DNA of 64,000 bases from Giardia intestinalis (taxonomy: Eukaryota), in the NCBI GenBank assembly GCA_000002435.2, contig CM018789.1. One strand, written 5' to 3'. The notes below the pieces were generated by a model. The model ran no database searches, was not told where the DNA came from, and saw only the letters and a program-made list of their open reading frames with translations. Positions within the stretch are counted from its first letter, which is position 1. Each line of letters begins with the position of its first letter. This document shows, piece by piece, positions 20,968-61,215 of this stretch. The position numbers and the translations under genes are program-made.

Positions 20968-20978
20968 TAGAAAAATAA

Positions 20979-21884
20979 ATGGAACCCACCGTTAAGAAAT
21001 GCACCTCTTGCACTTGCGAACCCGTCTCTGCGCCTGCGCATGAGCAACAGAAGCTTTTGGAAAACACATCTGCACCCTCAGCCTCTGCTACATTTAAGGC
21101 AGTTTCCAAGCGCCTTGTTAGAAACGTAGGCAGAGCCATCTCCACCTACAAACTTATTGAACAGGGCGATCGTGTTGCACTGGCCCTCTCGGGAGGAAAG
21201 GACAGCTGGACACTTCTCCACGTCCTCCTTGATATAGCAAAACGCTCCCCAGTTAAGTTCACTGTTATCCCTGTGACGGTGGAGACAGGATATCCAGGGT
21301 TTGAAGCCAATGTCGCAAAGCTCACGAAGTACATTGAGGAGAACCTCGGCATAAAGCACGTGGTCATAAAGGAGACCTTCCCGGAGATAATCGACGGGAA
21401 CTTACGCCAAGGAACAAGCAACTGCTCGTTCTGCGCCCGCTTACGAAGAGGAACCCTCTACACGCATTGCCAAAAACTGGGGATTAATAAGCTCGCCCTA
21501 GGTCACCATAGGGAGGACGTTAACGAGTCACTTTTGATGTCTCTTTTCTTCAACGGAAAACTCTGGACGCAAGGCCCGATAATTCATAACTCAGAGAAGA
21601 ACGTTACGCTAATTCGCCCCATGGTATTCTGCGCAGAAGAGGACACTATTGCATATGCGCGCCATAGTACGTTTCCAATAGTTACATGCAACTGTCCCCA
21701 CGAGGGAAACAAAGAACATCGGCGGTACAAGATCAAGCAGACGATTCTTACCATGCGCCAGTGGATTCCAGATATCCAGCGCAGCATCTTGACGGGGGCC
21801 ACAGAGCTATTCCAATTCATGCAATATACAGACAAGGGCAAGGAGCGAAATAACAGAGCAGAGGACGATGGTGAGCTAATGTAA
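20979..21884 (+). CDS. PP-loop ATPase, TtcA-family tRNA thiolation enzyme (tRNA 2-thiocytidine synthetase-like)
   Basis: SGGKDS PP-loop ([18 protein letters not shown]), [51 protein letters not shown] and [12 protein letters not shown] blocks. These align one-to-one with the E. coli TtcA blocks [63 protein letters not shown] and FPIIPCNLCG. Confidence 0.8.
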   Translation: [301 protein letters not shown]

Positions 21885-24800
21885 ACTGCAAGCATGCGCT
21901 CTGTCGGTGAGTAAAGGAGTAACAGGGGCTATCTCCTTTGTATCAATCTGATAAAGGGTCAGTTTCTTAGTTATGGTTTCCTTAGTTGCAGTCAGAGGAC
22001 GCGATAGAAGCTTCTCGTAGTTTAGTTGTGCAGGAGTGAAGGGGTGCAGACGAGGTGCAGTGCACTGGGCGTATCCTCGGTAGACGCGGCCCACATCTCT
22101 GTCTATGATGGCTTCTTTGTAGAATCTGCGGCAGGCTTTCCGATTAGAGACCGTCTTATCCCCAGCAACCGCTCGTTGTCGAGGGCCCCTATCATGTTTA
22201 TCTGGTGGAGGATTTGGTGGAAGCTTTTCTAAGGTATTAGTGATACGTTTATCAGAATCGTGCATGAGACCTCGTACTAGAGCCCCATTGGCATCACCGT
22301 CGTGCTCAGCAAAAACGTTTGTTGGTGCCTCTTGCAAAGATACTGGGTCTAGATTCTGACACCCGTGTGGATCTTCAAATAATTGTTTGCAACCATCACT
22401 GACAGGAATATTCAGCGTGGCCTCGTCATCCTTTGCTTCCCTTGTGACTTCGTCGCCAGTCTGTAGCACCGTTACGGGCTCAACAAGATGATTGTGAACT
22501 GTCGGTCTATCAGTACTAGTAAGACATCCATGGTCATCTAGAATTACTTGGGAACTACCAGTATCTATCCTCGAAGCAGTTCTAGCAGAAACGGGGGGTC
22601 TGGCTGGTTCCTTGGAACGGGTACAGGATGGAGCGCAAGAAAGTGGACGGGATATGCCAAAGCTCGCGCAGCGCTGCCTGTTAAGCCCCTCCTTGAGAAG
22701 TTTGGTCAGGTGCGAATCGTAGGCTGTGGTATTTAATGCCGCACTTTTAGCAGCATGATTGCGTTGCGGAGGAGCCCGAAGTTTCGGGGTGTAGGCCTGG
22801 AGGTACGCGATGTAGTCCAGCATCATGTTAGAGTGCGGACAAGAAGGCAGTGCAGTCTCGCTCCTGCGAAGATTAGGTAACGGGGTTGTTAATAGTCTAT
22901 TTGGAGTGACATCCAGAGCTTGCTTCGATATGCCGATCATTGGATTATGCGTTGGTGTGCTTATCACAACCTCTGTAAGATTCTGCGCTAGTGACAAATG
23001 CGGCCCTTCATGTTGAGCTTCTTCAAAACGGTCAGTCGGGAGCGATTCTTCCAAAGGAGAAGAAGATGGGGTGTAGAAAAACGCTTTGACAGCCTTAAGG
23101 TTTCTGTCGGCTTCAATTGTGGCATCCTGTGGGCTGGTAATCTCATTAGTTAGCTCTCTGAAATCAGGGGGTTCAAATCCGTCAGGGGCGCTGGAATCTG
23201 TGTCGGGGTGAAGTCCTCGTACCTTATGTATTACAGTATCCCCATCCGAGTACTTAATTCGTTTGTACAGCTCCATGTTCAGGCCTCGCTTCACCCTATC
23301 GATTCCATATATTCGTCTGATCTCGGCATCCTTTCGGAGATCGTTAAACAACTTTGTAACGCAATTTTTCTGATCAGGAGTCACTAGACGCTGCGCATAT
23401 GGAGATAATGCAGAGTCATGAGAGGTGTTGTGAAAGATCTGCTTTATGTCTTTCACGTCCTCTTCTGTGAGCGCATTAGTGCGCGCAGAAACGGCGTTGC
23501 ACATTGTAGAAATTTGGTTCTCCTTGGTGGGGATCTTCATCGGCGCGTATACACTCCGCACGATTCGTGATGAAGCATGTGGCGTTTGGCACTCAATGCG
23601 AGTATCAACCGGTGAAGTACCACTCAGATCCTCAGGAAAAATTCGAATATCACTCGGGACGTATGGAGAAGGGATATCCTTCACACTTCGAATGATGTTC
23701 TCTCTCTCAATGGTCATTGGAGTGTTGTATAGTAGCCTTAGATGTGCAGGAGAATGCAGTGGCAGCATTCCAAAAGCAGGCGCAGTACGTGGCCTAAAAG
23801 AAAGTAGATCAGGGCGCAGAGGCTCAGTGCGAGACACATAAGCAGAGGCAGACCTCAGCTTGTAACAGCGTAGCTTAGGAAGATCCGAGCTTCGCCTTGA
23901 TACAGTGGACGAAGCGGCCTTATTACGTAACCGTTGCAACTCTGTCTTTGTACCAGATGCCGATGCTTTTATGAATGCTCGCAGCTGTGGCGGATAGCGG
24001 GATATACCCAAATTGATTGGAGGTGGCGGTTTTGAAGGCACAACGGCCCCACAAGCATCTGTTTGAGAAGCTACATGTTGGAACTCACTAGGCATAGGGA
24101 CACGGAGAACTGAAGGTGCTGGTAAATCTGTAGGCATCGGCTGCGCAGCATTGTGAAAGGGAATCGGTTCAATGGCCACTAGTGAATGAACAATAAGACC
24201 AGCAAGTTTAGTTAGGTCAGGCATCCAATAGTAATTTTGTGCTCCTCGCTCCTGAAGCCTGGACGCCTTTGAACCTACCTGCAGCTGTGTCTGGGAACAA
24301 AGGGCAGGAGGGCTAGATAGAGTAAACCGCTTTGGAATGCGGCCTCGGAATGAGGGGTTGGGCCGTATGTGAGTAAAGCTAGACTGTAGAAAAGCTCTAG
24401 GCTGGTGCATCTTTTCCTCCTGAGAAGGGCTGGAAAGGCCATGCTGCGAGGTAAGCAACTTAGATGGCGGAATACTGGGTTTTATGGCAAGAGGCGGAGA
24501 CACGCACACGTATGACGTCCTCGAGCTTTTCTGGTCAATGTGCATAGGTGGTGGGGTAGCAGTTGGCACTCGGGAAACTACAGGCGAGATGGGAGCATCG
24601 TAGGAGGGCCGTGCATCGATAGGTCGATCTGTGAAATGGTAAGATGTGTCTGACGATGTATCTGTTGGTAGATCCGTTGTCAATAGCGGGAGTGAGATCG
24701 ATGACAGATGAACAGATTCAGAGTTCTCGCGAGACTGTGAAGCCGTATCCTCAGAAGTATAGTACTGCAGTGGGTGGATAACAAAAGAATCATTTCCAGA

Positions 24801-25940
24801 CTCTGGAAGTAGCCTCCTTTCGAAGGAAAGGATATTTCCACAAATAGTCTCACTCTGCGTTGGATTAGATTGAGAAAACGCATCTTCAAGGTCCTTCACC
24901 TGGGGAGACAAGTGAGACCCGCACTTATCTGACGAAGTATATTGTGGCATATTGGCACAGGGGCTTCCCGCTTGCGAATTATTCTCCTCGCAACAACTGG
25001 GAGAGGCAGTGCCAGGAAGCATAGATGCATGTTCCACTTTAGTTGGCTGCTTAAAGGATTGAGACTTCTTGCCCTCAGCAGTCACGAAAGGTTCATGAGA
25101 AAACTCTGCTTCCGTGCCCTGGCCAGGGTCTGGCCAAGAATTAGCTGTGTCAGTATGCATTTCTTCTTGTGACTCGAGTACGTCATGCATATTCTGCGAG
25201 CCCAAGCTGCCAGCTATGACCAACGGCTGCTTAAGTTGTAACGCAAAAGCGCCTTCTTGTTCCACGCCAGTAGTTGCATGGAGCATGCTCCTCATAGATC
25301 TCTCTGTTCTTTTGACAAGGTTAACATTCTTCAGGGTGTAAAGAGCATTCTTGTGGGCCTCTCGATTACGAGCCTCCTTGTGATGAAAACGGGAACTCTT
25401 TGGTTGCGGAGTTATGGTTGAGACTTCTTGCTTCGAGCCATCTGTCGACTTTTCGCAAATCTCGGGAGGCTTATTGGCATGTGTCAAAATGGGTGGGGGA
25501 TGTCCCAAAGTCGCCTGACGAACCGGCTCAGCCACAGAAAGCATGCCCCCTCTCCGCTTTTCCCTCCACTGACTAACGGAGTGTAAAACATTGTACTTGG
25601 TTGTGCTGTAGCCCTCATTACAGTACATCACGCGAGGTAACGTGACTGTCCGCCGAGAGTGGTTAGAGATCAAAACGCGGGGCTTCCTTGTGTCCATGTT
25701 CTTGTCATCCGAATAGATGTGTTCATTGAGGACTATTTGGGAGGGCATGACATAGCGTTTCTGGCCACTGGTTCGGAGCCCAAGAAGATCTATGGAGTCA
25801 TCGCCCTTAACAGGCCGCAACCTTAGAAGCTGCTCTCTTTCTGGCTCAGTATGGACGACGATGCCTGTGTCTCTAGCGGAAAAGCTTCTATTGGGTCGCT
25901 CTGAAAGTGGCCTCTTGCGTTCTGCCCTTCTGATAATCAT
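21876..25940 (-). CDS. hypothetical protein (~1354 aa from first ATG; 1401 aa if the GTG at 26081 is used)
   Basis: 4.2-kb uninterrupted ORF. The track start is GTG; the first in-frame ATG is at 25940. S/P-rich, no recognised domain. Overlaps the TtcA 3' end by 9 bp. Confidence 0.5.
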   Translation of the reverse strand: MIIRRAERKRPLSERPNRSFSARDTGIVVHTEPEREQLLRLRPVKGDDSIDLLGLRTSGQKRYVMPSQIVLNEHIYSDDKNMDTRKPRVLISNHSRRTVTLPRVMYCNEGYSTTKYNVLHSVSQWREKRRGGMLSVAEPVRQATLGHPPPILTHANKPPEICEKSTDGSKQEVSTITPQPKSSRFHHKEARNREAHKNALYTLKNVNLVKRTERSMRSMLHATTGVEQEGAFALQLKQPLVIAGSLGSQNMHDVLESQEEMHTDTANSWPDPGQGTEAEFSHEPFVTAEGKKSQSFKQPTKVEHASMLPGTASPSCCEENNSQAGSPCANMPQYTSSDKCGSHLSPQVKDLEDAFSQSNPTQSETICGNILSFERRLLPESGNDSFVIHPLQYYTSEDTASQSRENSESVHLSSISLPLLTTDLPTDTSSDTSYHFTDRPIDARPSYDAPISPVVSRVPTATPPPMHIDQKSSRTSYVCVSPPLAIKPSIPPSKLLTSQHGLSSPSQEEKMHQPRAFLQSSFTHIRPNPSFRGRIPKRFTLSSPPALCSQTQLQVGSKASRLQERGAQNYYWMPDLTKLAGLIVHSLVAIEPIPFHNAAQPMPTDLPAPSVLRVPMPSEFQHVASQTDACGAVVPSKPPPPINLGISRYPPQLRAFIKASASGTKTELQRLRNKAASSTVSRRSSDLPKLRCYKLRSASAYVSRTEPLRPDLLSFRPRTAPAFGMLPLHSPAHLRLLYNTPMTIERENIIRSVKDIPSPYVPSDIRIFPEDLSGTSPVDTRIECQTPHASSRIVRSVYAPMKIPTKENQISTMCNAVSARTNALTEEDVKDIKQIFHNTSHDSALSPYAQRLVTPDQKNCVTKLFNDLRKDAEIRRIYGIDRVKRGLNMELYKRIKYSDGDTVIHKVRGLHPDTDSSAPDGFEPPDFRELTNEITSPQDATIEADRNLKAVKAFFYTPSSSPLEESLPTDRFEEAQHEGPHLSLAQNLTEVVISTPTHNPMIGISKQALDVTPNRLLTTPLPNLRRSETALPSCPHSNMMLDYIAYLQAYTPKLRAPPQRNHAAKSAALNTTAYDSHLTKLLKEGLNRQRCASFGISRPLSCAPSCTRSKEPARPPVSARTASRIDTGSSQVILDDHGCLTSTDRPTVHNHLVEPVTVLQTGDEVTREAKDDEATLNIPVSDGCKQLFEDPHGCQNLDPVSLQEAPTNVFAEHDGDANGALVRGLMHDSDKRITNTLEKLPPNPPPDKHDRGPRQRAVAGDKTVSNRKACRRFYKEAIIDRDVGRVYRGYAQCTAPRLHPFTPAQLNYEKLLSRPLTATKETITKKLTLYQIDTKEIAPVTPLLTDRAHACSLH

Positions 25941-45807: not shown

Positions 45808-47232
45808 ATGATGGGCTCCTTGGGGGCTGCTGAGCACTACGAGAAAGCCTGTACTGCCTACTCGCAGCGCGTTAACGACATTGTCCAGCTACTGAAGCGT
45901 CTGGATACCCTTCATAGTGATGGTTCCGCGGCATTTGATTCTAATAACCGCGATAGATACTTGACCTTCTATCGTGCGCAGGACTCCTTACTAGAAGCTA
46001 TGATTACAGACATATCGCCGATTGAAGGCGTCCCCACCTATCTTAAGCGCTTGCTCAAGAGCCTTGCAGAGTTGGTGGGGGCTCTCCGACTTCTAAACGG
46101 CTGCTGCGTCAGAGATCTAGAAGGCATTTTCGCGTGGATCGATGAACATAGCTTTGAGAAGGCGCAAGAACAGAGGGACTTCTTCAAGATGCAAGCTGAG
46201 GCTGCAGGGAGAAAGCTCGAAGAGGCCACTGCTCTCAACACCTCTCTCACAAAGGAGATGGAACAGCTTGTGTGTCGCTATGAGGCGCAGGCTCGACAGA
46301 AAGAGAATCAGGCGAGCAAGATGCTTGACGAGTACAAGAAGCTGTTCAGAGACATCGCAGGCAAAGCTTCAAGGTACGTAAAATCTGAGGAGCATGCTCT
46401 GCTGGGCCAAGAGGCAGTCTCAGATCATGAACTTCTTTCGACACAGATACAGATAGGCAGTAGAGCAATTGACACTTTGGATCCTGGACTGCCGATAAAT
46501 GATGAACTACTTGAATTCACGAGTCACACCGCTTCCAACTTGGTTGATCTTCTATTACGTTTAGTAGAGGCAGAAGGCAGACGTCACCCCTTGTCGGAGT
46601 CGGCAGAAGCTGAGATGATCAAGTACAGCGGTCCGGAGTCAGTAAGACTTGATGCCCTGGAAGCGCAGCAAGCTGCATTGTACAGACAGATCAATAGGCA
46701 AGATGAACGATTGGAAAGGTTTGATGCACAGAACCATCCCGTTCCCATGTCGATGCTCGACGAGTTGGCTAGGGATGCTTCAGAGCTAAAGGGAAAGTCA
46801 GCTGAGCAGACACAACACATCGCTGAACTATTGGGTATTCAGTATGAGTCGATTATACCAGTTGGTTACAGTCGCGAGCGCCCTCAATCTTCTCACAATA
46901 ATCCCTCAGACTGTCTAAAGGAAATAGTGGACTCTCTTATGTTTTCAACAGCGTGCATATGTAACTTGCATGCAGTGGTTGGCTATGGGATTGATTCATA
47001 TGCGATTATAGACACAGTAAAGGCGGAGTCCGATAGGAAGCGAAGAGTGTCCAGAAAAAGGAAAAGGATGGCAGGGACTGTCAGTGCAAGAGACATGATA
47101 TCTTCTGCGCTTGATGCCTCTGATCTTGGAGCTAAGAGCAATGTTGCAACAACACAAGAGGTTCCGTTGGGCGACTTGACGCCTAGTGGACAGCGAACAT
47201 ATACGGTTCGGGCGCAGCTAATGCAACTGTGA
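45808..47232 (+). CDS. coiled-coil hypothetical protein, 474 aa; the inverted-repeat boundary falls inside it at 46064
   Basis: ATG verified. Predicted coiled-coil stretches. Its 3' 390 codons are duplicated in inverted orientation at 61216-62394. Confidence 0.55.
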   Translation: MMGSLGAAEHYEKACTAYSQRVNDIVQLLKRLDTLHSDGSAAFDSNNRDRYLTFYRAQDSLLEAMITDISPIEGVPTYLKRLLKSLAELVGALRLLNGCCVRDLEGIFAWIDEHSFEKAQEQRDFFKMQAEAAGRKLEEATALNTSLTKEMEQLVCRYEAQARQKENQASKMLDEYKKLFRDIAGKASRYVKSEEHALLGQEAVSDHELLSTQIQIGSRAIDTLDPGLPINDELLEFTSHTASNLVDLLLRLVEAEGRRHPLSESAEAEMIKYSGPESVRLDALEAQQAALYRQINRQDERLERFDAQNHPVPMSMLDELARDASELKGKSAEQTQHIAELLGIQYESIIPVGYSRERPQSSHNNPSDCLKEIVDSLMFSTACICNLHAVVGYGIDSYAIIDTVKAESDRKRRVSRKRKRMAGTVSARDMISSALDASDLGAKSNVATTQEVPLGDLTPSGQRTYTVRAQLMQL

Positions 47233-47294
47233 AATTCTTTGATGCATGGATGAGTGGGGACCAGGTATGTAGTTGACTGACGCTTTGCAAGTAG

Positions 47295-48197
47295 TCATAG
47301 AATATGCTCCAGTGCACGCGCAACGTAATATTTAATCAGCGAGATTATCGCATACGCTTGCCTGGCCATAAAGGCGAGCATGTGCTTGTCGGCTCGCCAC
47401 GCAATCAGAAATTCGAGCTTGCCATGCTCTACGTCCACTGTCCATGAGTGTATGGAGTGTAAAGGATGAAGCGCAAGTTTGTTGTGTGTTTCACGATCAT
47501 ATATATGTAGAGCCTTAGAATCTACCGCTAGAAAAACAGAGACAGGGTCGTTGGGAGAGAGATATGTAGCCTCAAAGAATTCCATCCTAGTGAGATCGAC
47601 GCTATCGATGAATTCTACGAAAAGTCTGTGAGTCTGCACTGTGGGATGTCCCCTGGCCTTGGCCCGAGAGAGAACCAGAACATCCCAATCTTTGGCTGTG
47701 CGCTTGCTTCGTATGCACGGATGGATGTAGCGTTCTATATTTTGTGCCACAACTCCCGGTGACAGTGGATCCTTGTCTAGTAAAAGACGCAAAGATGCAA
47801 ATTCAACGACATTATCTTCTGACGGGGGTATAGGCAGACGCATGTAGTCCTCGATACCCTGGGCCACGGCAAGAAAACTATAGGGAGAGTTTTCAGTGAC
47901 ACTTGGGTTTGTCGTGTGCTGGGGTAGCCTCCGAAGTAAGAAGGGAGAAAGCCCGTCTGGGATATTGACTTGTTGAAGGTATAGTTCCAGAGGACGGTCG
48001 CTGGTCTGAAGAATGCGCGCGCCTGTCTCTTCTCGGAGGAATAGAGATAGGTCTTGAGTATGGTCCTCCAGCCCCATTGCTTTGCATAGTGCTTTAATGG
48101 CCTCGATCGTTGTGGCTCCCAGAGTAAGGGAGACCTCTGTTTCTGCTCCTCCCGGAGCTTGTGCTCGTAAAGTGTGGGCAAAGCGTGCAAGATCCAT
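47295..48197 (-). CDS. hypothetical protein (~300 aa), copy 1 of 2 inside the inverted repeat
   Basis: The track start at 48209 is TTG; the first ATG is at 48197. The C-terminal half (VEFIDSVDLTRMEFFEATYL...LEFLIAWRADKHMLAFMARQAYAIISLIKYY) suggests a PH/PTB-like fold, but nothing is certain. Confidence 0.5.
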   Translation of the reverse strand: MDLARFAHTLRAQAPGGAETEVSLTLGATTIEAIKALCKAMGLEDHTQDLSLFLREETGARILQTSDRPLELYLQQVNIPDGLSPFLLRRLPQHTTNPSVTENSPYSFLAVAQGIEDYMRLPIPPSEDNVVEFASLRLLLDKDPLSPGVVAQNIERYIHPCIRSKRTAKDWDVLVLSRAKARGHPTVQTHRLFVEFIDSVDLTRMEFFEATYLSPNDPVSVFLAVDSKALHIYDRETHNKLALHPLHSIHSWTVDVEHGKLEFLIAWRADKHMLAFMARQAYAIISLIKYYVARALEHIL

Positions 48198-50850
48198 TGA
48201 ATCAATCAACTCTTTTAAAGTTCATTGCCCCCGCTATGTTAACGACAATCCTCCGGTCATATCTACAGGTGTGTGAGTATCTTTGGGGCTGCAATGTCCG
48301 TCGTACTGCCTGGACGCAATGCTGAACCAGAGAGAGCTGCCATATGAATGTGCGTATATTGAGCTTAACAGAGTTAGGTTCGGCGCTATCGAGTTGTAAC
48401 ACGGTCTAGAACTACTCTATTCATAACTATGAATGCATTTCAGACAGAGCGAGGACCTATAGGTGCTATTCTCTGTGAGGATATCTGACAAATACAACTG
48501 TGATTGCTTTGGAGAAGCTGCTTATGTTAGTACTCTGGCACTTCTTCACGAAGTGCTTTGTTGACCTGCCATTAGGACGATGACTGTTCTTTGAAGCCTC
48601 TAACATGGGCCCTACGAACGTGCGTTCTTGTAGTTTCATCTCTTTATCTGGAGGCTACGTTCTCTAATGTCACGCTCTTATGGTGGCGGTAGGTCTTTGC
48701 AATCTATGGATTGAGTTACGATAAAACTTGTAATCTGTGTTTGAACTCGGAAAGCCACCGACATGTTAGAATAAGTTTAGACCATATTTACTGAATTGCT
48801 CCTTTTGCAATCAGGAGCTGCACTAGCTAAGGCTTTGCTTAACTTCTTTAGCACCTCGTAGTACAGCTGTTCAGCCCATTTGAGTTGGCACACCCTTCTG
48901 CTCAAGGTTGCAGAGGCCTACAGATTAGAATGCAGTGCTAACTGCCCCCTCAGCGTGGGCGTCTGATGGTATTTATGACACTGTATTCTATGACTCTCTA
49001 GAATTATCTGTGACACTTAGGCATATATATTTTGGTAATTCTGGCTTTTTGGCAGAGGGTTACGGAACTTAACCCTCGGGGATACCCTTTTACGGCATAT
49101 TTAAGGGTTCGTTCTATCTTCCACGGACTATTGAAACGTTGATCATAAGATCAGAGGAAAGCCACTATAAGGTGTCCTCGAGCTATCAGTCACAGCATGG
49201 AATAGGTAGCCCTTAAAGGTTACCATGCAATTCAGTGCCCTTTGAAAATCAGCACTAAGGCCTACTATATCAGCGATACTTAGAAGTATAGATAAGGCGC
49301 GCACACCCATGCAGATTGTGTATGTATAGCAGCGTGCATTGTGAGTTCATAGTGAAGCTATGATATGGGGCAGAACCCCGCTTAGACGATAAAGTCATTC
49401 GCGGTGCTTTACTTGGCACATTTACTCCGGTTCTGAGAAGCGTTATGAAAACACGGAGTCAGTGATGTGAACAAAGAGCGTGCAATGAACTGGGAATCAT
49501 CGAGGTTAATAGAATGGCGCGAAGCGAGTGTTATCTACCGCCCTGTTAGGCTACAGGTGTCGGTGTTCCTGGTTGTCAGTAGAGCTGCACAGATCCTACG
49601 ATTCCAAGAGCTGACCCCTCCCGAGAGCATTAGCAAGCGCTTATAGTGACGCGGAGTAGAGGCTGACCAATGCAAGTCGACGCACACTGTGCGACATAGA
49701 GGGGAGCGCCAAGCCGTAGCAGTAGGACTTTTACTGCGTGGTTTGCTGGCTCGCAACGCAGGAGATAACGTGTCTGTATCGACCAGTTTATCTGTTCAAG
49801 ATTGGGGACAGCTTAGACAGAGGTTGCAGACAGGAACTGGTTAGCTTGCTTGTCAGAAACTGGAGGCCTGATTTCTCCGCGTCCTACATGTGGGTTCAAA
49901 GAATGGTGGATCCGGAGACAGACACGCAAATGATAAAAAATGGCAACTCATTACAACCTCCCCGGGCGTCTGCTCCCACCTTTTGCAAGCATTTGTATGC
50001 TAGAGGAGCTTTAGTGCAGAGAATTCTGATGACGCAGGCAGCTTCTCGGTGGTTAGCATCCACGTAGAGAGTCCCGTCTCTTGAGACCTGCAGATTCAGT
50101 ACGCGCTTAGGAGTTACGGGTATGGATACTCTAAGACAGACGTGTCTATGGATGCAGCTGGGTACCAGTACTTGTCCCTGCATTAACCGTTGCCATGATT
50201 GGGTTGTGCAGCGTGTCCTGTCCGCTGACCCGAGATAGCACGTTTGGACAATGCCGCTTTCTATGCGGGCCTGGAAGAATTAAGCTTTTTGAAGTGTTGC
50301 CAGTCAACCCATCGCACAATGAGAGGCTGTACCAATAGCCTAGCGAAGCATCAGAAACAAGCCGTGCACGTTCCAGACCGGAGTGCCCAGCAAGCCAGTC
50401 TGTTGCTAGCATACACCTCCTACAGGCTTCTCGGTTGCCACAATCTCCTTTCGGAATCCTGCAAAGAACCGTTTCTGGGCTTATCCCGGATGCCGGGCTT
50501 TGAGTATGACCCGCGCAGGACCAGCAGCAGGCATAAAGCGTAGAGAATACCCAGGATGCCAGCTAATTCCACAGAGTAAGGGAGGTAGGCACAAAGGACA
50601 GCGCTGTTGTCTATTTCTGAAGTGTCTGTTCCCGCTGCACAGAGGGGTCGCAGAGTCTGTATTCGGCGGAGAAAGGGGCTACGCAAGGGACGCGTCTAAC
50701 GCTTGACGAAGTCATATTTCTCAACCAGAGACACATAAAAGGGTTTCCTTAGACTAGTCATCGTAGATACAACAACCAGATTCTTAGGCTTGGGTGCTTG
50801 AGATTATTAAGAAGATTCTTACCCGTATAAGTGAGCTGAGAAGGATTTTA

Positions 50851-52899
50851 ATGTTGCTTGCAATTTTCTACTTTGTGATAAGCACTCTTACAGCAAAGTG
50901 TACTACGCAGACACAAACTTGTGAAGCTGAGAAGTGCGAAATGGTTGGTGAAACAGAAATCTGTACACGGTGTCAAACAGGAAAAGTTCCAATTGATGGA
51001 AAGTGCGTAGATGCTACTGCTAATGCAAACTGCAAAAACGCTAGCGGTGATGGTGATGCAAACCAAGTCTGCGGAAAATGCATAGGAGCTAACTTTTTCA
51101 TGTATAAGGGCGGATGCTATGATAAAGAGAAGGTACCGGGAAATACTCTGTGCACAACTGTGTCACCAGATGGAGTATGCTCAGTAGCTGCGAATGAATA
51201 CTTTGTTCCACCAAATGCGGATGCTACTCATGATTCAGTCGTATCATGTTCTGAGGAAACCCCAATACATCTTGCTAATAACAAGCAGTACATAGGCGTA
51301 GCGGGATGTGCTACTTGCAGTGCTCCTAAGGCTCCTGGTGAAGACAACACCCCAAAGGCTGCTACGTGTACTAAGTGTGCAGCAGGATTTCTACATACTC
51401 CATCTGAAGGACTGAGTTCATGCGAAGAAACATGCCCAGAGGGATACTTCGGGCACACAGCTACTGCTGAAAGCAAGAAGACTTGCAAATCATGCACAGG
51501 CGGATCTAGCGAAGCACCGAATGTAAAGGGTATTGGAGACTGTCTGAAGTGCATGTACAATGAGGCTAGCGGCAATACCCTTACGTGCGAAAAATGCAGT
51601 GCACAAAAGAAGCCAAGTCTAGATAAAACAAGTTGTAATGATTGTACAGGTCAAAACTGCGCTTTCTGTAGTTCTAGTGGGGGAGACTGTGAGGGATGTG
51701 ACTCTGGTTTCATCTTGGATGGACAAAACTGTGTTAAGAGCGACTGCAAGACTGAGAACTGCAAGGCGTGCACCAATCCGAAGGCAGCAAACGAGGTCTG
51801 CACAGAGTGCATCTCCACTCACCATCTCACGCCGACAAGTCAATGTGTGCAGTACTGTCAAGCACTTGGAAACTACTATGCTGGCACTAATGCTGACAAC
51901 AAAAAGGCATGCAAGGAGTGCACTGTGGCTAACTGCAAAACTTGCAATGATCAGGGGCAGTGTCAAACATGCAACGACGGATTCTATAAAAACGGCGACG
52001 CATGCTCTCCGTGCCACGAAAGCTGCAAGACATGCAGCGCAGGCACTGCCAGCGACTGCACCGAGTGTCCCACTGGAAAAGCACTTAAGTATGGAAACGA
52101 CGGTACTAAGGGCACGTGTGGAGAAGGCTGCACAACAGGCCAAGGCAGCGGTGCCTGCAAAACGTGTGGGCTCACTATCGATGGTGCTAGCTACTGCTCT
52201 GAGTGTGATACACAAAATGAATATCCTCAAAATGGGATCTGTACTTCAACGACCGCTCGTACTGTGGCTACTTGTAAGAATAGCAACGTTGCCAATGGCA
52301 TATGTAGCTCATGTACCAATGGATTTCTTCGTATGAACGGAGGCTGCTATGAGACGACCAAGTTTCCGGGAAAGAGCGTCTGCGAAGGTGCAAACGCAGA
52401 CGCAGACACGTGCAAAGCACCTGTTCCAGGTTACAAAGTAGAGGCAGGAAAGCTTGTGATGTGCTCTAAGGGCTGTGACACGTGCAGCGACGCAACTACT
52501 TGTACAAAATGTGGAGATGGATACACAAAAATTGAAAACAGCCAAACATGCACAAAGTGTGATTCCAGCTGTGAAACATGTACTGGAGCAGCTACAACAT
52601 GTAAGGTGTGTGCTACAGGATACTACAAGACCGCATTGGGAGAAAGTACGTGCACATCCTGCGAAAATGATAGCAACGGAGTCATCGGTGTCAAGGGCTG
52701 CTTAAACTGCGCTCCTCCATCGTCTAGTACTGGCTCCGTTCTCTGCTACCTCATGAAAGGTGAGAATACTGGTGGAAGCGTCAACAAGAGCGGCCTTTCC
52801 ACTGGCGCCATCGCGGGGATCTCCGTCGCAGCCGTCGTCGTCGTGGCCGGCCTTGTGGGCTTCCTCTGCTGGTGGTTCATCTGCCGTGGAAAGGCGTAG
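50851..52899 (+). CDS. vsp: variant-specific surface protein (VSP), 682 aa, copy 1
   Basis: Signal peptide [15 protein letters not shown]. About 12% Cys, mostly as CXXC. GGCY motifs (KGGCYD, NGGCYE). One C-terminal TM helix and a CRGKA tail. The track start is GTG; the ATG is at 50851 with an AT-rich context (attttaATG). Confidence 0.9.
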
Positions 52900-52914
52900 A
52901 CTTAGGTAGTAAAC
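52900..52914 (+). promoter_or_regulatory. extended VSP-type polyadenylation signal ACTTAGGTAGTAAAC
   Basis: Begins 1 nt after the VSP stop codon. It matches the VSP-associated motif ACTYAGRTAGTRAAY, which contains the general Giardia signal AGTRAAY. Confidence 0.75.
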
Positions 52915-53367
52915 GCGTCACTGTATATGGCTTATTACGCTGTGCTGCTGGGGCTATCTGAGAGCGGTCCAGAGATCATGCGAGTGGGCCCGCTCCTTCC
53001 TGGCCAGTCTAAGGACGAGGGTTGAGTATGGATAACATAATGAAAGAGTCCTCTTCAGTGACACATCCAGAATCTGGGCATTCCTCGCCGCTCCATGAGG
53101 ATATGCTCTGTCTGGATGTCCATGCCGATCTGCCTTGGATTCAGGTCTTCTCGCAGACTCTCTGCTCTACCAGTGGCGCCTCTCCTTGGCCTGCCGTCTG
53201 GTGGGTGAAGCTCCAGTCGCCGTCTTTTTTAGATGCTCCCGTCTGACTCGGTGATTGCTGTCGGGCCCTCCGCTGGCTGGGCCCCTCGGTGTCCGGGCAG
53301 CTGTGGCCCGGGTCAGCGCTCCCACAGTCGCGGTCGCTTGGGTCCCAGCGGGTTCGGATGATGGGTG

Positions 53368-55080
53368 AGGCGGGGTATGGGGCGGTGAGGCTGGAGGGGA
53401 CCGGGGGGTGGTTGTATGTGCCCCTGGGTCTGATGGGCCATGTCGGGTGATCGCAGCTGTGGTGACTGGGGGCTGTCTATCTGTGACCCATCCCTCTGTG
53501 GACTCGTGAGTGCCCTCCGCCCAGGCAACCCTCAGGAGCCGTGCACGCTGGGACAGAGAGGGTGACCAAGGGAGTTAAGCAGCCCTGCCATGATGCTGAG
53601 GGTGCACAGCAGCCAGCCTGATCTGCAGGGCCTGCTCGAGCGATGGTAGTGGCAGACGACTCCCTCTGACAGCGACCCTGGTGACTGCACTGGCCTACTC
53701 TCGAAGCTGAGTGACAATGAACCAGACGGACCTGAGTGCAGGAGGACCGTCCACACACGAACAGACTGTGTAGACCCAGAGAGGACCGGAGTCTGCTCGG
53801 GACACGCTGACTGTGCCCCATACGAGAGCCCCAGGCAACCACCCGAGCACCCGAGAGGCAGCAACAGACACGGGCACCAGAGATTCCCAGCCAGACAGCT
53901 GCCATGCTCATCCACAGGGGCATCAGAGGACCAGGTGGAGTCACCCTCACAACCAGGGCCTAATAGGAAGCCAGAGGACTCACGCAGCACAGCAGAGCAG
54001 GCCCAAGGGAGGCACACTCCAGGCAGGTGAGCAGTGGCAGAGCCCTGACAGCTGCCAGCCCCCATGACACCCAGGCAGGCACCAGACTCGCTGGCCTCGA
54101 CTGCATTCACGATGACCTGAGGGGGCAGCAGCCAGAGGAGTGAGGAGACCTTCGGACACCACAAGAGGCCCGGCTGTCCAGCAGGCTATGGAGCACAGGT
54201 GACCTCTGAGCACCACAAAGGCACAGGAGCCGACCATCAGAGTGATGCCCGATCACAGAGACGACCACGAGCACCCTCCACCCACTCTGAGGGGCTGTCG
54301 ATCATTCCACTGCCTCTCATAGCAGACCTCCTTGAGGGCAGTGCAGTGAGTGACTCAGCTCATGCAGGAGGGTGCACGCCTCCCCTGGCATAGGATGCCG
54401 ACTCTCCCCGAGGGGTCATCAGAGCCACGAGGAGGGGTCAAGGTTAGTAGACCACACCGGGAACTCCCGAGGGCACAGCAGGTGATGTTGGGTGATCCTC
54501 AGCGTGCTCCTCTCTGATGGTAGAGCATCCTGAGACCAAGGGGGCTCACCCCTGCCTACGGACGACACACAGCGCTTCACAACGAGGACCCACCAGGAGC
54601 AGCACAGCTGACCACGGGGACAGTGCAGTCACCGATGCCCCACCGTGTTAGTCTTTTGAGTCATCACACTAGAGGCATGAGAGAACCCATCCCATCCACA
54701 GGCTCATCCACACCCCTGCTGGTCCCAGGTGAACTCCCCGTCGAGGCACCGGACAGGGCATGCCAGGGGCTCAGCAGACCCGCACAGAGCAACAGCGAGT
54801 AGCAGGAGGGGCTGCGATGGCCTGCCTCGACACTCACGCACCAGCCAGACAGAGCAGCAGTACTGCCTGAGGCATGCAGGGGCCAAGGGAGGCACTCAGT
54901 CAGGGGGACACGACACGATCGTCGGTGCCTGTGTCTCGGGAGTGCAACGAGGGCTGGAGAGCAGACACAACCACCTTGGCAAACAGAGCGGGGATCACCC
55001 CAATGACCCACCGAACCCAGAGGCACATACGAACACCACCAACCTCAGCCCCCACCAGAGCCCCACCAGCCTCACCGCCC
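53368..55080. other. central spacer of the inverted repeat: GC-rich, plus strand T-depleted from ~53560 to 55080, with only decayed inverted symmetry
   Basis: Representative lines carry ~8% T on the plus strand (e.g. 53941-54000). 53368-53560 is the complementary G/T-rich type. Arm-proximal ends still align at ~80% identity (tgtatgtgcccctgggtctgatgggccatgtcgggtgatcgcagctgt vs cgtatgtgcctctgggttcggtgggtcattggggtgatccccgctctgt). The long ORFs here are composition artefacts. Confidence 0.6.
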
Positions 55081-55533
55081 CACCCATCATCCGAACCCGC
55101 TGGGACCCAAGCGACCGCGACTGTGGGAGCGCTGACCCGGGCCACAGCTGCCCGGACACCGAGGGGCCCAGCCAGCGGAGGGCCCGACAGCAATCACCGA
55201 GTCAGACGGGAGCATCTAAAAAAGACGGCGACTGGAGCTTCACCCACCAGACGGCAGGCCAAGGAGAGGCGCCACTGGTAGAGCAGAGAGTCTGCGAGAA
55301 GACCTGAATCCAAGGCAGATCGGCATGGACATCCAGACAGAGCATATCCTCATGGAGCGGCGAGGAATGCCCAGATTCTGGATGTGTCACTGAAGAGGAC
55401 TCTTTCATTATGTTATCCATACTCAACCCTCGTCCTTAGACTGGCCAGGAAGGAGCGGGCCCACTCGCATGATCTCTGGACCGCTCTCAGATAGCCCCAG
55501 CAGCACAGCGTAATAAGCCATATACAGTGACGC

Positions 55534-55548
55534 GTTTACTACCTAAGT
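55534..55548 (-). promoter_or_regulatory. extended VSP-type polyadenylation signal (mirror copy)
   Basis: Reverse complement of gtttactacctaagt is ACTTAGGTAGTAAAC, immediately 3' of the minus-strand VSP stop. Confidence 0.75.
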
Positions 55549-57597
55549 CTACGCCTTTCCACGGCAGATGAACCACCAGCAGAGGAAGCCCACAAGGCCG
55601 GCCACGACGACGACGGCTGCGACGGAGATCCCCGCGATGGCGCCAGTGGAAAGGCCGCTCTTGTTGACGCTTCCACCAGTATTCTCACCTTTCATGAGGT
55701 AGCAGAGAACGGAGCCAGTACTAGACGATGGAGGAGCGCAGTTTAAGCAGCCCTTGACACCGATGACTCCGTTGCTATCATTTTCGCAGGATGTGCACGT
55801 ACTTTCTCCCAATGCGGTCTTGTAGTATCCTGTAGCACACACCTTACATGTTGTAGCTGCTCCAGTACATGTTTCACAGCTGGAATCACACTTTGTGCAT
55901 GTTTGGCTGTTTTCAATTTTTGTGTATCCATCTCCACATTTTGTACAAGTAGTTGCGTCGCTGCACGTGTCACAGCCCTTAGAGCACATCACAAGCTTTC
56001 CTGCCTCTACTTTGTAACCTGGAACAGGTGCTTTGCACGTGTCTGCGTCTGCGTTTGCACCTTCGCAGACGCTCTTTCCCGGAAACTTGGTCGTCTCATA
56101 GCAGCCTCCGTTCATACGAAGAAATCCATTGGTACATGAGCTACATATGCCATTGGCAACGTTGCTATTCTTACAAGTAGCCACAGTACGAGCGGTCGTT
56201 GAAGTACAGATCCCATTTTGAGGATATTCATTTTGTGTATCACACTCAGAGCAGTAGCTAGCACCATCGATAGTGAGCCCACACGTTTTGCAGGCACCGC
56301 TGCCTTGGCCTGTTGTGCAGCCTTCTCCACACGTGCCCTTAGTACCGTCGTTTCCATACTTAAGTGCTTTTCCAGTGGGACACTCGGTGCAGTCGCTGGC
56401 AGTGCCTGCGCTGCATGTCTTGCAGCTTTCGTGGCACGGAGAGCATGCGTCGCCGTTTTTATAGAATCCGTCGTTGCATGTTTGACACTGCCCCTGATCA
56501 TTGCAAGTTTTGCAGTTAGCCACAGTGCACTCCTTGCATGCCTTTTTGTTGTCAGCATTAGTGCCAGCATAGTAGTTTCCAAGTGCTTGACAGTACTGCA
56601 CACATTGACTTGTCGGCGTGAGATGGTGAGTGGAGATGCACTCTGTGCAGACCTCGTTTGCTGCCTTCGGATTGGTGCACGCCTTGCAGTTCTCAGTCTT
56701 GCAGTCGCTCTTAACACAGTTTTGTCCATCCAAGATGAAACCAGAGTCACATCCCTCACAGTCTCCCCCACTAGAACTACAGAAAGCGCAGTTTTGACCT
56801 GTACAATCATTACAACTTGTTTTATCTAGACTTGGCTTCTTTTGTGCACTGCATTTTTCGCACGTAAGGGTATTGCCGCTAGCCTCATTGTACATGCACT
56901 TCAGACAGTCTCCAATACCCTTTACATTCGGTGCTTCGCTAGATCCGCCTGTGCATGATTTGCAAGTCTTCTTGCTTTCAGCAGTAGCTGTGTGCCCGAA
57001 GTATCCCTCTGGGCATGTTTCTTCGCATGAACTCAGTCCTTCAGATGGAGTATGTAGAAATCCTGCTGCACACTTAGTACACGTAGCAGCCTTTGGGGTG
57101 TTGTCTTCACCAGGAGCCTTAGGAGCACTGCAAGTAGCACATCCCGCTACGCCTATGTACTGCTTGTTATTAGCAAGATGTATTGGGGTTTCCTCAGAAC
57201 ATGATACGACTGAATCATGAGTAGCATCCGCATTTGGTGGAACAAAGTATTCATTCGCAGCTACTGAGCATACTCCATCTGGTGACACAGTTGTGCACAG
57301 AGTATTTCCCGGTACCTTCTCTTTATCATAGCATCCGCCCTTATACATGAAAAAGTTAGCTCCTATGCATTTTCCGCAGACTTGGTTTGCATCACCATCA
57401 CCGCTAGCGTTTTTGCAGTTTGCATTAGCAGTAGCATCTACGCACTTTCCATCAATTGGAACTTTTCCTGTTTGACACCGTGTACAGATTTCTGTTTCAC
57501 CAACCATTTCGCACTTCTCAGCTTCACAAGTTTGTGTCTGCGTAGTACACTTTGCTGTAAGAGTGCTTATCACAAAGTAGAAAATTGCAAGCAACAT
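55549..57597 (-). CDS. vsp: variant-specific surface protein (VSP), 682 aa, copy 2 (100% identical to copy 1)
   Basis: Identical translation to 50851-52899. It is convergent (tail-to-tail) with copy 1, with 2.65 kb between the two stop codons. Confidence 0.9.
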
Positions 57598-60250
57598 TAA
57601 AATCCTTCTCAGCTCACTTATACGGGTAAGAATCTTCTTAATAATCTCAAGCACCCAAGCCTAAGAATCTGGTTGTTGTATCTACGATGACTAGTCTAAG
57701 GAAACCCTTTTATGTGTCTCTGGTTGAGAAATATGACTTCGTCAAGCGTTAGACGCGTCCCTTGCGTAGCCCCTTTCTCCGCCGAATACAGACTCTGCGA
57801 CCCCTCTGTGCAGCGGGAACAGACACTTCAGAAATAGACAACAGCGCTGTCCTTTGTGCCTACCTCCCTTACTCTGTGGAATTAGCTGGCATCCTGGGTA
57901 TTCTCTACGCTTTATGCCTGCTGCTGGTCCTGCGCGGGTCATACTCAAAGCCCGGCATCCGGGATAAGCCCAGAAACGGTTCTTTGCAGGATTCCGAAAG
58001 GAGATTGTGGCAACCGAGAAGCCTGTAGGAGGTGTATGCTAGCAACAGACTGGCTTGCTGGGCACTCCGGTCTGGAACGTGCACGGCTTGTTTCTGATGC
58101 TTCGCTAGGCTATTGGTACAGCCTCTCATTGTGCGATGGGTTGACTGGCAACACTTCAAAAAGCTTAATTCTTCCAGGCCCGCATAGAAAGCGGCATTGT
58201 CCAAACGTGCTATCTCGGGTCAGCGGACAGGACACGCTGCACAACCCAATCATGGCAACGGTTAATGCAGGGACAAGTACTGGTACCCAGCTGCATCCAT
58301 AGACACGTCTGTCTTAGAGTATCCATACCCGTAACTCCTAAGCGCGTACTGAATCTGCAGGTCTCAAGAGACGGGACTCTCTACGTGGATGCTAACCACC
58401 GAGAAGCTGCCTGCGTCATCAGAATTCTCTGCACTAAAGCTCCTCTAGCATACAAATGCTTGCAAAAGGTGGGAGCAGACGCCCGGGGAGGTTGTAATGA
58501 GTTGCCATTTTTTATCATTTGCGTGTCTGTCTCCGGATCCACCATTCTTTGAACCCACATGTAGGACGCGGAGAAATCAGGCCTCCAGTTTCTGACAAGC
58601 AAGCTAACCAGTTCCTGTCTGCAACCTCTGTCTAAGCTGTCCCCAATCTTGAACAGATAAACTGGTCGATACAGACACGTTATCTCCTGCGTTGCGAGCC
58701 AGCAAACCACGCAGTAAAAGTCCTACTGCTACGGCTTGGCGCTCCCCTCTATGTCGCACAGTGTGCGTCGACTTGCATTGGTCAGCCTCTACTCCGCGTC
58801 ACTATAAGCGCTTGCTAATGCTCTCGGGAGGGGTCAGCTCTTGGAATCGTAGGATCTGTGCAGCTCTACTGACAACCAGGAACACCGACACCTGTAGCCT
58901 AACAGGGCGGTAGATAACACTCGCTTCGCGCCATTCTATTAACCTCGATGATTCCCAGTTCATTGCACGCTCTTTGTTCACATCACTGACTCCGTGTTTT
59001 CATAACGCTTCTCAGAACCGGAGTAAATGTGCCAAGTAAAGCACCGCGAATGACTTTATCGTCTAAGCGGGGTTCTGCCCCATATCATAGCTTCACTATG
59101 AACTCACAATGCACGCTGCTATACATACACAATCTGCATGGGTGTGCGCGCCTTATCTATACTTCTAAGTATCGCTGATATAGTAGGCCTTAGTGCTGAT
59201 TTTCAAAGGGCACTGAATTGCATGGTAACCTTTAAGGGCTACCTATTCCATGCTGTGACTGATAGCTCGAGGACACCTTATAGTGGCTTTCCTCTGATCT
59301 TATGATCAACGTTTCAATAGTCCGTGGAAGATAGAACGAACCCTTAAATATGCCGTAAAAGGGTATCCCCGAGGGTTAAGTTCCGTAACCCTCTGCCAAA
59401 AAGCCAGAATTACCAAAATATATATGCCTAAGTGTCACAGATAATTCTAGAGAGTCATAGAATACAGTGTCATAAATACCATCAGACGCCCACGCTGAGG
59501 GGGCAGTTAGCACTGCATTCTAATCTGTAGGCCTCTGCAACCTTGAGCAGAAGGGTGTGCCAACTCAAATGGGCTGAACAGCTGTACTACGAGGTGCTAA
59601 AGAAGTTAAGCAAAGCCTTAGCTAGTGCAGCTCCTGATTGCAAAAGGAGCAATTCAGTAAATATGGTCTAAACTTATTCTAACATGTCGGTGGCTTTCCG
59701 AGTTCAAACACAGATTACAAGTTTTATCGTAACTCAATCCATAGATTGCAAAGACCTACCGCCACCATAAGAGCGTGACATTAGAGAACGTAGCCTCCAG
59801 ATAAAGAGATGAAACTACAAGAACGCACGTTCGTAGGGCCCATGTTAGAGGCTTCAAAGAACAGTCATCGTCCTAATGGCAGGTCAACAAAGCACTTCGT
59901 GAAGAAGTGCCAGAGTACTAACATAAGCAGCTTCTCCAAAGCAATCACAGTTGTATTTGTCAGATATCCTCACAGAGAATAGCACCTATAGGTCCTCGCT
60001 CTGTCTGAAATGCATTCATAGTTATGAATAGAGTAGTTCTAGACCGTGTTACAACTCGATAGCGCCGAACCTAACTCTGTTAAGCTCAATATACGCACAT
60101 TCATATGGCAGCTCTCTCTGGTTCAGCATTGCGTCCAGGCAGTACGACGGACATTGCAGCCCCAAAGATACTCACACACCTGTAGATATGACCGGAGGAT
60201 TGTCGTTAACATAGCGGGGGCAATGAACTTTAAAAGAGTTGATTGATTCA

Positions 60251-61153: not shown

Positions 61154-61215
61154 CTACTTGCAAAGCGTCAGTCAACTACATACCTGGTCCCCACTCATCC
61201 ATGCATCAAAGAATT

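Follow-up and report, generated by a model that had tools for sequence, protein, structure and literature searches.

A stand-alone TtcA-clade protein of Giardia and its fornicate relatives as a candidate tRNA 2-thiocytidine synthase

The 64,000-nucleotide stretch of Giardia intestinalis DNA analysed here (the window; contig CM018789.1 of assembly GCA_000002435.2) carries a gene for a 301-residue protein that, by profile scores and trees, belongs to the TtcA clade of PP-loop ATP pyrophosphatases. Taken jointly, the evidence is best explained by a functional, nuclear-encoded TtcA, a [4Fe-4S]-dependent tRNA sulfurtransferase that most likely makes 2-thiocytidine at position 32 (s2C32) of cytosolic tRNAs; we put the probability of this reading at about 0.62. 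The gene and its catalytic motifs are located as follows.

20979 to 21884, plus strand: TtcA-clade coding sequence (301 residues, stand-alone) from the open reading frame list, with an ATG start and a TAA stop at 21882 to 21884
21189 to 21206, plus strand: PP-loop SGGKDS, residues 71 to 76, the ATP pyrophosphatase motif, invariant in alignments of 21 and of 120 sequences
21423 to 21434, plus strand: CSFC, in which C149 and C152 correspond to C122 and C125 of E. coli TtcA by BLASTP and MAFFT, invariant in 120 sequences
21501 to 21542, plus strand: GHHxxD block followed by the 'ESxxMS' signature, residues 175 to 188; the bacterial counterpart of the signature is 'ETLLLN'
21687 to 21698, plus strand: CNCP (C237, C239, P240), the third-ligand motif of the 'CxCP' subtype, in the context 'TCNCP'

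Among the NCBIfam models the TtcA model NF007972 ranks first for the Giardia protein at 244.9 bits, and its E value of 1e-72 places the similarity far beyond chance. The NcsA, TilS_N and TtuA models score 70.4, 65.4 and 63 bits, and PF01171 (PP-loop, 53.7 bits) is the sole Pfam domain. Comparison with E. coli K-12 TtcA (b1344, L001:6017-6949, minus strand) by BLASTP gave 37% identity over 227 residues (E 9e-57) and returned all four blocks quoted in a reading of this DNA made from sequence only, which had described a block-for-block alignment with the E. coli enzyme. Yeast Ncs6, used as a control and checked to be the exact database entry, scored 186.7 bits with the NcsA model and 81.5 bits with that of TtcA. 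A neighbour-joining (NJ) tree of 69 sequences (254 columns, 300 bootstraps) parts the bacterial TtcAs together with the fornicate proteins from Ncs6, NcsA, TtuA and TilS with 95% support, which drops to 22–62% when the long-branched TtcA-like domains of eukaryotic fusion proteins (described below) join the trees. The sequence-only reading had proposed a phylogeny of the TtcA, TtuA and Ctu1 clades and named a position inside Ctu1/Ncs6 as the outcome that would count against it. No such placement was obtained, and the TtcA assignment therefore stands.

Two other family identities were weighed against these data. Giardia is reported to possess URM1 (GL50803_11884) and UBA4 (GL50803_12853) (PMC7029713) and so needs a Ctu1/Ncs6 enzyme, the s2U34 thiolase of the Urm1 pathway; that enzyme is of the same superfamily, and the NCBIfam NcsA alignment spans residues 8 to 285 of our protein. 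It is nevertheless very improbable that the present gene encodes it, the NcsA score being far under that of TtcA, the yeast control showing the reverse order and the tree keeping the groups apart. The cysteines of the Giardia protein (residues 8, 11, 13, 149, 152, 164, 218, 237 and 239) end at residue 239 without a C-terminal zinc-finger CxxC pair, and both the N- and C-terminal zinc fingers typical of Ctu1, Ncs6 and NcsA (PMC10067955) are missing from this cysteine map. Identity with Ctu1/Ncs6 is thus refuted by profile scores, tree and control. The TtuA, NcsA and Ctu1 (Ncs6) enzymes share with the Giardia protein the fold, the three-cysteine cluster site and presumably the chemistry of adenylation and cluster-bound sulfide, but are only about 20–23% identical to it, carry zinc fingers at both ends and act on U54 or U34. 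The sequence-only reading had supposed that eukaryotes use Ctu1 in place of TtcA; this is a false alternative, since Ctu1 makes s2U34 and TtcA makes s2C32.

The second identity is the one under which the gene is filed, for the G. duodenalis and G. muris records (P0001 and P0129) are named 'tRNA(Ile)-lysidine synthase' (TilS) in NCBI and UniRef. TilS has a PP-loop N-terminal domain in common with the Giardia protein and catalyses a different reaction. Beyond the database names, the shared domain is what speaks for TilS, but its 65.4 bits are below the model's cut-off of 93.6 bits and amount to a quarter of the TtcA score. The PP-loop domain is also the only Pfam domain in 301 residues, as against the 317–464 residues of solved TilS chains, and the cysteines that align with the cluster ligands are invariant here, whereas a solved TilS chain, in the profile alignment, lacks Cys where the CxxC falls. 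Lysidine is, to our knowledge, needed for bacterial-type AUA decoding and not in the eukaryotic cytosol, and we found no literature on lysidine in Giardia. We regard TilS as even less probable than Ctu1/Ncs6; it is refuted at the level of sequence, and on that level the TilS name on the G. duodenalis and G. muris records is a misannotation. Elsewhere the names differ: 'PP family ATPase' in isolate P15 and assemblage B, and 'tRNA 2-thiocytidine biosynthesis protein' for the Hexamita orthologue. A PP-loop gene of Trichomonas that was also considered proved to be unrelated: it is of TilS type and was recently transferred from Peptoniphilus.

The Giardia protein resembles the E. coli and Salmonella TtcAs in being a stand-alone single-domain protein of about 300 residues with the SGGKDS PP-loop, the CxxC motif, a third Cys, RLRRGxLY and GHHxxD. 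It differs from E. coli TtcA in its third-Cys motif (CNCP for CNLC), in a fornicate insertion of 2–3 residues after the GF..V block, in the fornicate 'ESLLMS/TQxP' where E. coli has 'QTLFLN/GMPP', and in its N-terminus, which is extended by 37 disordered residues that include a CxxCxC motif. Across 120 aligned relatives C149, C152 and C237 are invariant, and C239-P240 is at least 90% conserved. C122, C125 and C222 of E. coli TtcA are essential and are the proposed cluster ligands, while C219 is dispensable (PMC4081106). BLASTP aligns C239 with E. coli C222, with a one-residue indel relative to the E. coli CNLC. In profile alignments C239 coincides with the third cluster ligand both of TtuA ('CPY') and of MmNcsA, where it is Cys233, a crystallographic ligand (PMC10067955). 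The cysteines that align with the three cluster ligands of TtcA are thus kept, as the sequence-only reading had suggested, although the third ligand is ambiguous between C239 and C237. An AF2 model built from the 120 relatives has pLDDT above 90 over residues ~38–285. Its best matches in the PDB are the [4Fe-4S] thiolases TtuA and NcsA (TM 0.67), with TilS next.

The gene is not a stray bacterial sequence. A database search found the window protein to be 100% identical to G. duodenalis protein P0001, which is present on 177 contigs, the largest of 1.49 Mb; the Giardia origin guessed in the sequence-only reading is thus correct. Orthologues are 96% identical in isolate P15, 89% in assemblage B, 85–86% in further sequences and 65% in the representative of the G. 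muris cluster. The genes of assemblages A and B give a dN/dS of 0.046 overall and 0.020 in the core; the GC content of the gene (0.498) is close to that of the genome (0.494). The order Spec3-like gene, divergent large gene, TtcA is common to assemblages A and B and a G. muris-like contig. The Hexamita inflata orthologue (L084:6001-6810) reads TAA or TAG as Gln at six in-frame positions, of which one falls in the conserved IEQGD block, and its neighbours are eukaryotic genes (V-ATPase proteolipid, MRS2-like, kinesin and Trm1). In the free-living fornicate Kipferlia bialata, introns split the coding sequence of the homologue KIPB_003933 (P0165, L085:8001-9750) into at least seven exon pieces, and the gene adjoins a guanylate cyclase gene. 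The Kipferlia protein is also stand-alone; it keeps the bacterial-type NTMLLN, SMPP and SCSCP, and its C-terminal tail, CPASACAGCPMARGCGGCG, is rich in Cys. Since the best matches outside the fornicates are bacterial, one could suspect contamination, an artefact of assembly or a pseudogene in decay; we give such explanations practically no credence and regard them as excluded by the synteny with Giardia-specific neighbours, the host-like GC, the dN/dS, the hexamitine genetic code in Hexamita and the introns in Kipferlia, besides the number and size of the contigs. By these sequence measures the gene is native to the eukaryote, functional and under strong purifying selection. We note that a tRNA-Asp(GTC) gene (L084:5815-5887) lies ~115 bp upstream of the Hexamita TtcA.

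Eukaryotic relatives were sought both in a word-indexed search, of which the 120 best matches were taken, and in an exhaustive HMMER scan, which gave 7,992 relatives at E ≤ 0.001, the best 150 of which were inspected. Among the 120 word-search matches the eukaryote-labelled proteins are all from fornicates. The best 150 HMMER relatives include dozens of proteins of 950–1,650 residues with a class-V aminotransferase (SufS/CsdA-like) domain at the N-terminus and, at the C-terminus, a TtcA-like domain 34–43% identical to the Giardia protein. Such fusions occur in Choanoeca perplexa (P0208), Besnoitia besnoiti (P0210), a Gregarina species (P0226) and further EukProt transcriptomes. Their domains carry 'GQH' and 'ENCPAC' motifs and form a clade of their own with 98–100% bootstrap. 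A 2026 preprint describes the desulfurase-TtcA architecture in Aplysia (LOC101861551 type) and other molluscs, and reports s2C32 in Aplysia tRNA-Lys, linked to the TtcA-domain protein and claimed as the first eukaryotic detection; for the presence of TtcA homologues in Giardia lamblia it refers to Jager 2004 and Bouvier 2014. Beyond this one preprint the fusion family is barely described in the literature. The sequence-only reading had presented a TtcA-like enzyme as exceptional in a eukaryote. This does not hold, since the desulfurase-TtcA fusions are widespread (choanoflagellate, apicomplexans, molluscs); TtcA-like enzymes are therefore no rarity among eukaryotes. The fornicates stand out in having the enzyme unfused: the Giardia protein consists of one domain and lacks the N-terminal class-V aminotransferase. 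The fusions (Aplysia type, P0208, P0210 and P0226) are like the Giardia protein in being eukaryotic and nuclear and in having a TtcA-clade domain that scores below the family cut-off, with S184/M187/S188 and 'NCP'; they differ in their length, in the aminotransferase domain, in 'GQH' for 'GHH' and in 'ENCPAC' for 'CNCP'. Further members of the fusion family are P0180, P0192, P0198, P0204, P0296 and ~30 more, some from environmental eukaryotes. A protein of another make, P0205 (552 residues, on a 32.8-kb Logan contig), joins an N-terminal TtcA domain to a C-terminal FdhD/NarQ domain. FdhD is a sulfur-transfer protein, and P0205 would therefore be a second kind of TtcA/sulfur-relay fusion.

The chemistry of the family consists of ATP-dependent adenylation of the base followed by attack of a sulfide that sits on the iron left free in a [4Fe-4S] cluster with three Cys ligands (PMC4081106; PMC10067955). 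By homology with E. coli TtcA and with TtuA and NcsA, whose structures are characterised, the Giardia enzyme would bind ATP at the SGGKDS loop and adenylate C2 of the target pyrimidine. We infer that a [4Fe-4S] cluster is held by three cysteines only (C149, C152 and C239, or alternatively C237), with a hydrosulfide on its free iron; the cluster-borne sulfur would displace the activated oxygen with release of AMP. The most likely product would be 2-thiocytidine at position 32 in a subset of cytosolic tRNAs. The enzyme itself is probably cytosolic; its N-terminal extension is disordered and lineage-specific. The cluster would be delivered by the CIA machinery of the cytosol. IscS, the sulfur donor known from bacteria, resides in the mitosome in Giardia, and we therefore propose that the sulfur comes from free sulfide or from a carrier in the cytosol that bears it as persulfide or thiocarboxylate. 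A MoeB homologue of bacterial type (GL50803_11436) is reported in Giardia without a MoaD or ThiS partner (PMC7029713); as a sulfur-carrier-activating protein, this orphan MoeB might bear on the sulfur supply of cytosolic thiolases.

Several points weigh against the assignment of a C32 thiolase. The score of the Giardia protein lies below the NCBIfam equivalog cut-off of 272 bits (NF007972) and well apart from those of its nearest bacterial relatives (325–348 bits) and of E. coli TtcA (514). Although Giardia retains 53 (72%) of the 74 columns that are at least 90% conserved in 111 bacterial TtcAs, 12 columns with that degree of conservation are replaced in all nine fornicate sequences. These replacements include T184S, L187M, N188S, A197T and M198Q, and cluster in a helix ('ETLLLN' to 'ESLLMS') and a loop ('AM.P' to 'TQ.P'), so that specificity could have shifted. 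The PDB copy searched contains neither a TtcA nor a TtcA-tRNA structure, and there are therefore no known C32-specificity residues to compare. We found no tRNA modification data for Giardia in the literature, and in that on Fe-S proteins of Giardia and Excavata 'tRNA thiolation' was met only in reference lists. The window contains no tRNA gene and no Rfam match. Finally, the mitosomal location of IscS leaves the sulfur supply unexplained.

The catalytic apparatus is thus intact, while a surface that may contact the tRNA is altered, and for that reason we keep, as unlikely but deserving of weight, the possibility that the TtcA-derived fold and chemistry now serve another target: a different nucleoside or position (s2U, for example), another set of tRNAs or a substrate that is not tRNA. 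The score under the cut-off and the fornicate-wide replacements in helix and loop are in keeping with this, as is the fact that the relatives TtuA and NcsA run the same chemistry on U54 or U34. On the other hand every catalytic motif is retained along with 72% of the bacterial-conserved columns. A low score is also met elsewhere. The TtcA model gives 229 bits for G. muris, 232 for Dysnectes, 200 for Hexamita and 218 for Kipferlia, but also 206–221 bits for the fusion domains and 233 for P0160, a divergent but genuine bacterial TtcA. Since P0160 and the fusions fall below the cut-off too, a low score reflects divergence and does not require a new function. Proteins with the fusion domain are, moreover, linked to s2C32 in Aplysia, which makes s2C in eukaryotes plausible. 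The third-Cys pattern PxxxCxCP occurs in 25 of the 111 bacterial TtcAs and is thus an existing bacterial subtype. A functional TtcA acting on C32 is the reading we prefer.

As to the origin of the gene, the sequences of Giardia, Hexamitinae and Dysnectes form one clade with 99–100% bootstrap, all with the 2–3 residue insertion. Its internal order follows the organismal phylogeny (Giardia 94%, diplomonads 98%), so the gene is older than the split of Dysnectes from the diplomonads; with a homologue in Kipferlia as well, the sequences indicate that it is old in Fornicata. Its source was examined by distance methods only, the densest sampling being 216 sequences, run under two distance estimators with 300 bootstraps for each. 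When the fusion domains are left out, the fornicates fall within the bacterial TtcAs, with a sister of CxCP type only in 60% of replicates and with Thermodesulfobacteriota/Syntrophales within the sister group in 55%. With the fusions, the 138-sequence NJ tree places the fornicates beside the fusion clade (43% bootstrap). In the 216-sequence trees fornicates and fusions are joined in 6–17% of replicates and fornicates and Kipferlia in 27–30%, and the fornicate sister is bacterial in 43–62%. The highest similarity, 40–45%, is to short CxCP-type bacterial TtcAs (Thermodesulfobacteriota, Syntrophales, Nitrospirota, Geobacter and Acidobacteriota), which have the same third-Cys pattern as the Giardia protein; unlike it, they score 325–348 bits and keep T184, L187, N188, A197 and M198. 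An attempt to choose the donor by similarity failed, the best GTDB matches being flat at 35–43% identity across Nitrospirota, Proteobacteria, Desulfobacterota, Myxococcota and Acidobacteriota. No single bacterial lineage is supported as donor.

An outgroup-polarised count found two derived states common to fornicates and fusions, S184 and S188. Kipferlia, however, has the bacterial states T/L/N at the signature sites, which weakens T184S, N188S and M198Q as fornicate synapomorphies. P0160 (L087:6624-7358, from the bacterial metagenome-assembled genome GCA_045580225.1) carries 'HHREDLNISLLMS', 'SGGKDSW' and, as a third-ligand motif with one Cys only, 'NNCP', and is 47% identical to Giardia over matched stretches (Giardia residues 41–248). 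It stands among dense bacterial genes, is fast-evolving and has ordinary gammaproteobacterial TtcAs as its nearest relatives. The 'SLLMS' of its lineage arose independently, and the signature is therefore homoplastic. Together with the Kipferlia states this convergence weakens S184 and S188 as proof of a clade of fornicates and fusions.

We consider it an even chance that the gene entered by lateral transfer from a bacterium, without connection to the desulfurase-TtcA fusions, the donor having a 'CxCP'-type TtcA such as those of anaerobic Thermodesulfobacteriota or Nitrospirota and the recipient being the ancestor of Dysnectes and the diplomonads, or possibly an earlier one that includes Kipferlia. 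The bacterial sister groups in both kinds of tree agree with this, as do the occurrence of PxxxCxCP among bacterial TtcAs, the fornicate proteins being the only eukaryote-labelled ones among the 120 word-search matches, and the fusion-type domains, which in the exhaustive scan score no higher than bacterial TtcAs (137–160 bits). Against it stand the want of a strongly supported bacterial sister, the flat identities, the best NJ tree of one data set with its fornicates beside the fusions, and the restriction to distance methods. A single old eukaryotic gene as the ancestor of both the stand-alone fornicate TtcA and the TtcA domain of the fusions, with the fornicates having either retained it unfused or shed the desulfurase, seems to us rather unlikely. 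It would account for the sister position in the 138-sequence tree, for the shared derived S184 and S188 (T and N in the outgroups) and 'N-C-P' at the third Cys, and for fusions in eukaryotes as distant as a choanoflagellate, apicomplexans and molluscs. But the grouping falls to 6–17% with denser sampling, Kipferlia, which branches earlier among the fornicates, has the bacterial T/L/N, the S..MS states arose independently in a gammaproteobacterial lineage, and states of the fusions' own (such as H176Q and 'ENCPAC') are not found in fornicates. Both groups are also long-branched, so attraction is likely. The horizontal acquisition suggested by the sequence-only reading is thus plausible, though the trees do not settle it.

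The surroundings of the gene in the window, and its N-terminal extension, contain the following features.

20979 to 21089, plus strand: N-terminal extension, residues 1 to 37, fast-evolving and predicted to be disordered (pLDDT below 50)
21000 to 21017, plus strand: Cys8-x2-Cys11-x-Cys13 (KKCxSCxCEP) within the extension, kept in five of five G. duodenalis-group sequences
20968 to 20978, no strand assigned: A/T-rich 11-bp spacer TAGAAAAATAA between the divergent ATGs (minus-strand ATG at 20967, plus-strand ATG at 20979)
21876 to 21884, no strand assigned: 9-bp overlap between the 3′ ends of the TtcA gene and a convergent gene, read from the sequence
21876 to 25940, minus strand: the convergent gene, 1354 residues counted from the first ATG, its TAG stop appearing as CTA at 21876 to 21878
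21910 to 21915, plus strand: AGTAAA, a candidate Giardia-type polyadenylation signal 25 nt past the stop, read from the sequence

By alignment the N-terminal extension is absent from G. muris, Hexamita, Dysnectes, Kipferlia and bacteria, and pN is 0.25 in it as against 0.026 in the core. Its C8/C11/C13 motif is lineage-specific and, with three cysteines, not a complete four-ligand zinc finger. Both neighbours of the TtcA gene lie on the opposite strand and are without a Pfam domain. The overlap with the 1354-residue gene, to which the sequence-only reading had drawn attention, is real and is called in the same form in assemblage B. On the other side the spacer TAGAAAAATAA parts the gene from a divergent 1023-residue gene; an ATG-ATG spacing of 11 bp is also called in assemblage B, and on the G. 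muris-like contig it is 43 bp. We presume that the spacer serves as a shared Giardia-type initiator with promoter function, and AGTAAA would function as the known AGTRAA-type signal of Giardia does.

The remaining genes of the window are typical of Giardia (VSP genes, a large ankyrin-repeat protein, CKS and RIB43A). At its far end lies an inverted repeat of 7,310 nt, with arms at 46064-53373 and 55075-62384 that are 100% identical and a spacer of 1,701 nt. Each arm holds one VSP gene, the two being placed tail to tail.

50794 to 52899, plus strand: VSP gene of 701 residues (PF03302, 679 bits)
55549 to 57654, minus strand: its counterpart in the other arm (701 residues; PF03302, 679 bits)

Each arm also has a 304-residue open reading frame with a weak PTB/IRS match, and the arms take in most of a 474-residue open reading frame and its 392-residue mirror copy. 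GC is 0.57–0.59 at 52–56 kb of the window. Because the identity of the arms is perfect, a recent duplication, gene conversion or an assembly effect is suggested.

The gene is already in the databases under mixed names and is mentioned in passing in the literature; the NCBI names of the G. duodenalis and G. muris gene should read TtcA-like. s2C32 has so far been treated as a bacterial and archaeal modification, with one 2026 preprint claiming the first eukaryotic case. Stand-alone TtcA in Giardia, Hexamita, Dysnectes and Kipferlia, together with the fusion family, predicts that s2C32 is commoner in eukaryotes than has been catalogued. In its fullest form the proposal is tentative, and we would hold it at a little under even odds: fornicates would thiolate C32 of cytosolic tRNAs by means of a stand-alone TtcA that is loaded by the CIA machinery and draws its sulfur from outside the mitosomal IscS (free sulfide, Uba4/Urm1 or a relay through the orphan MoeB), and s2C32 would, with the fusions, be a widespread and overlooked eukaryotic modification with at least two origins or acquisitions. 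Giardia, with its simple single-domain protein and its genetic tractability, offers a test case. With this enzyme an organism whose Fe-S machinery is minimal would have a further, presumably cytosolic, [4Fe-4S] client, and the question arises of where the enzyme's sulfur comes from.

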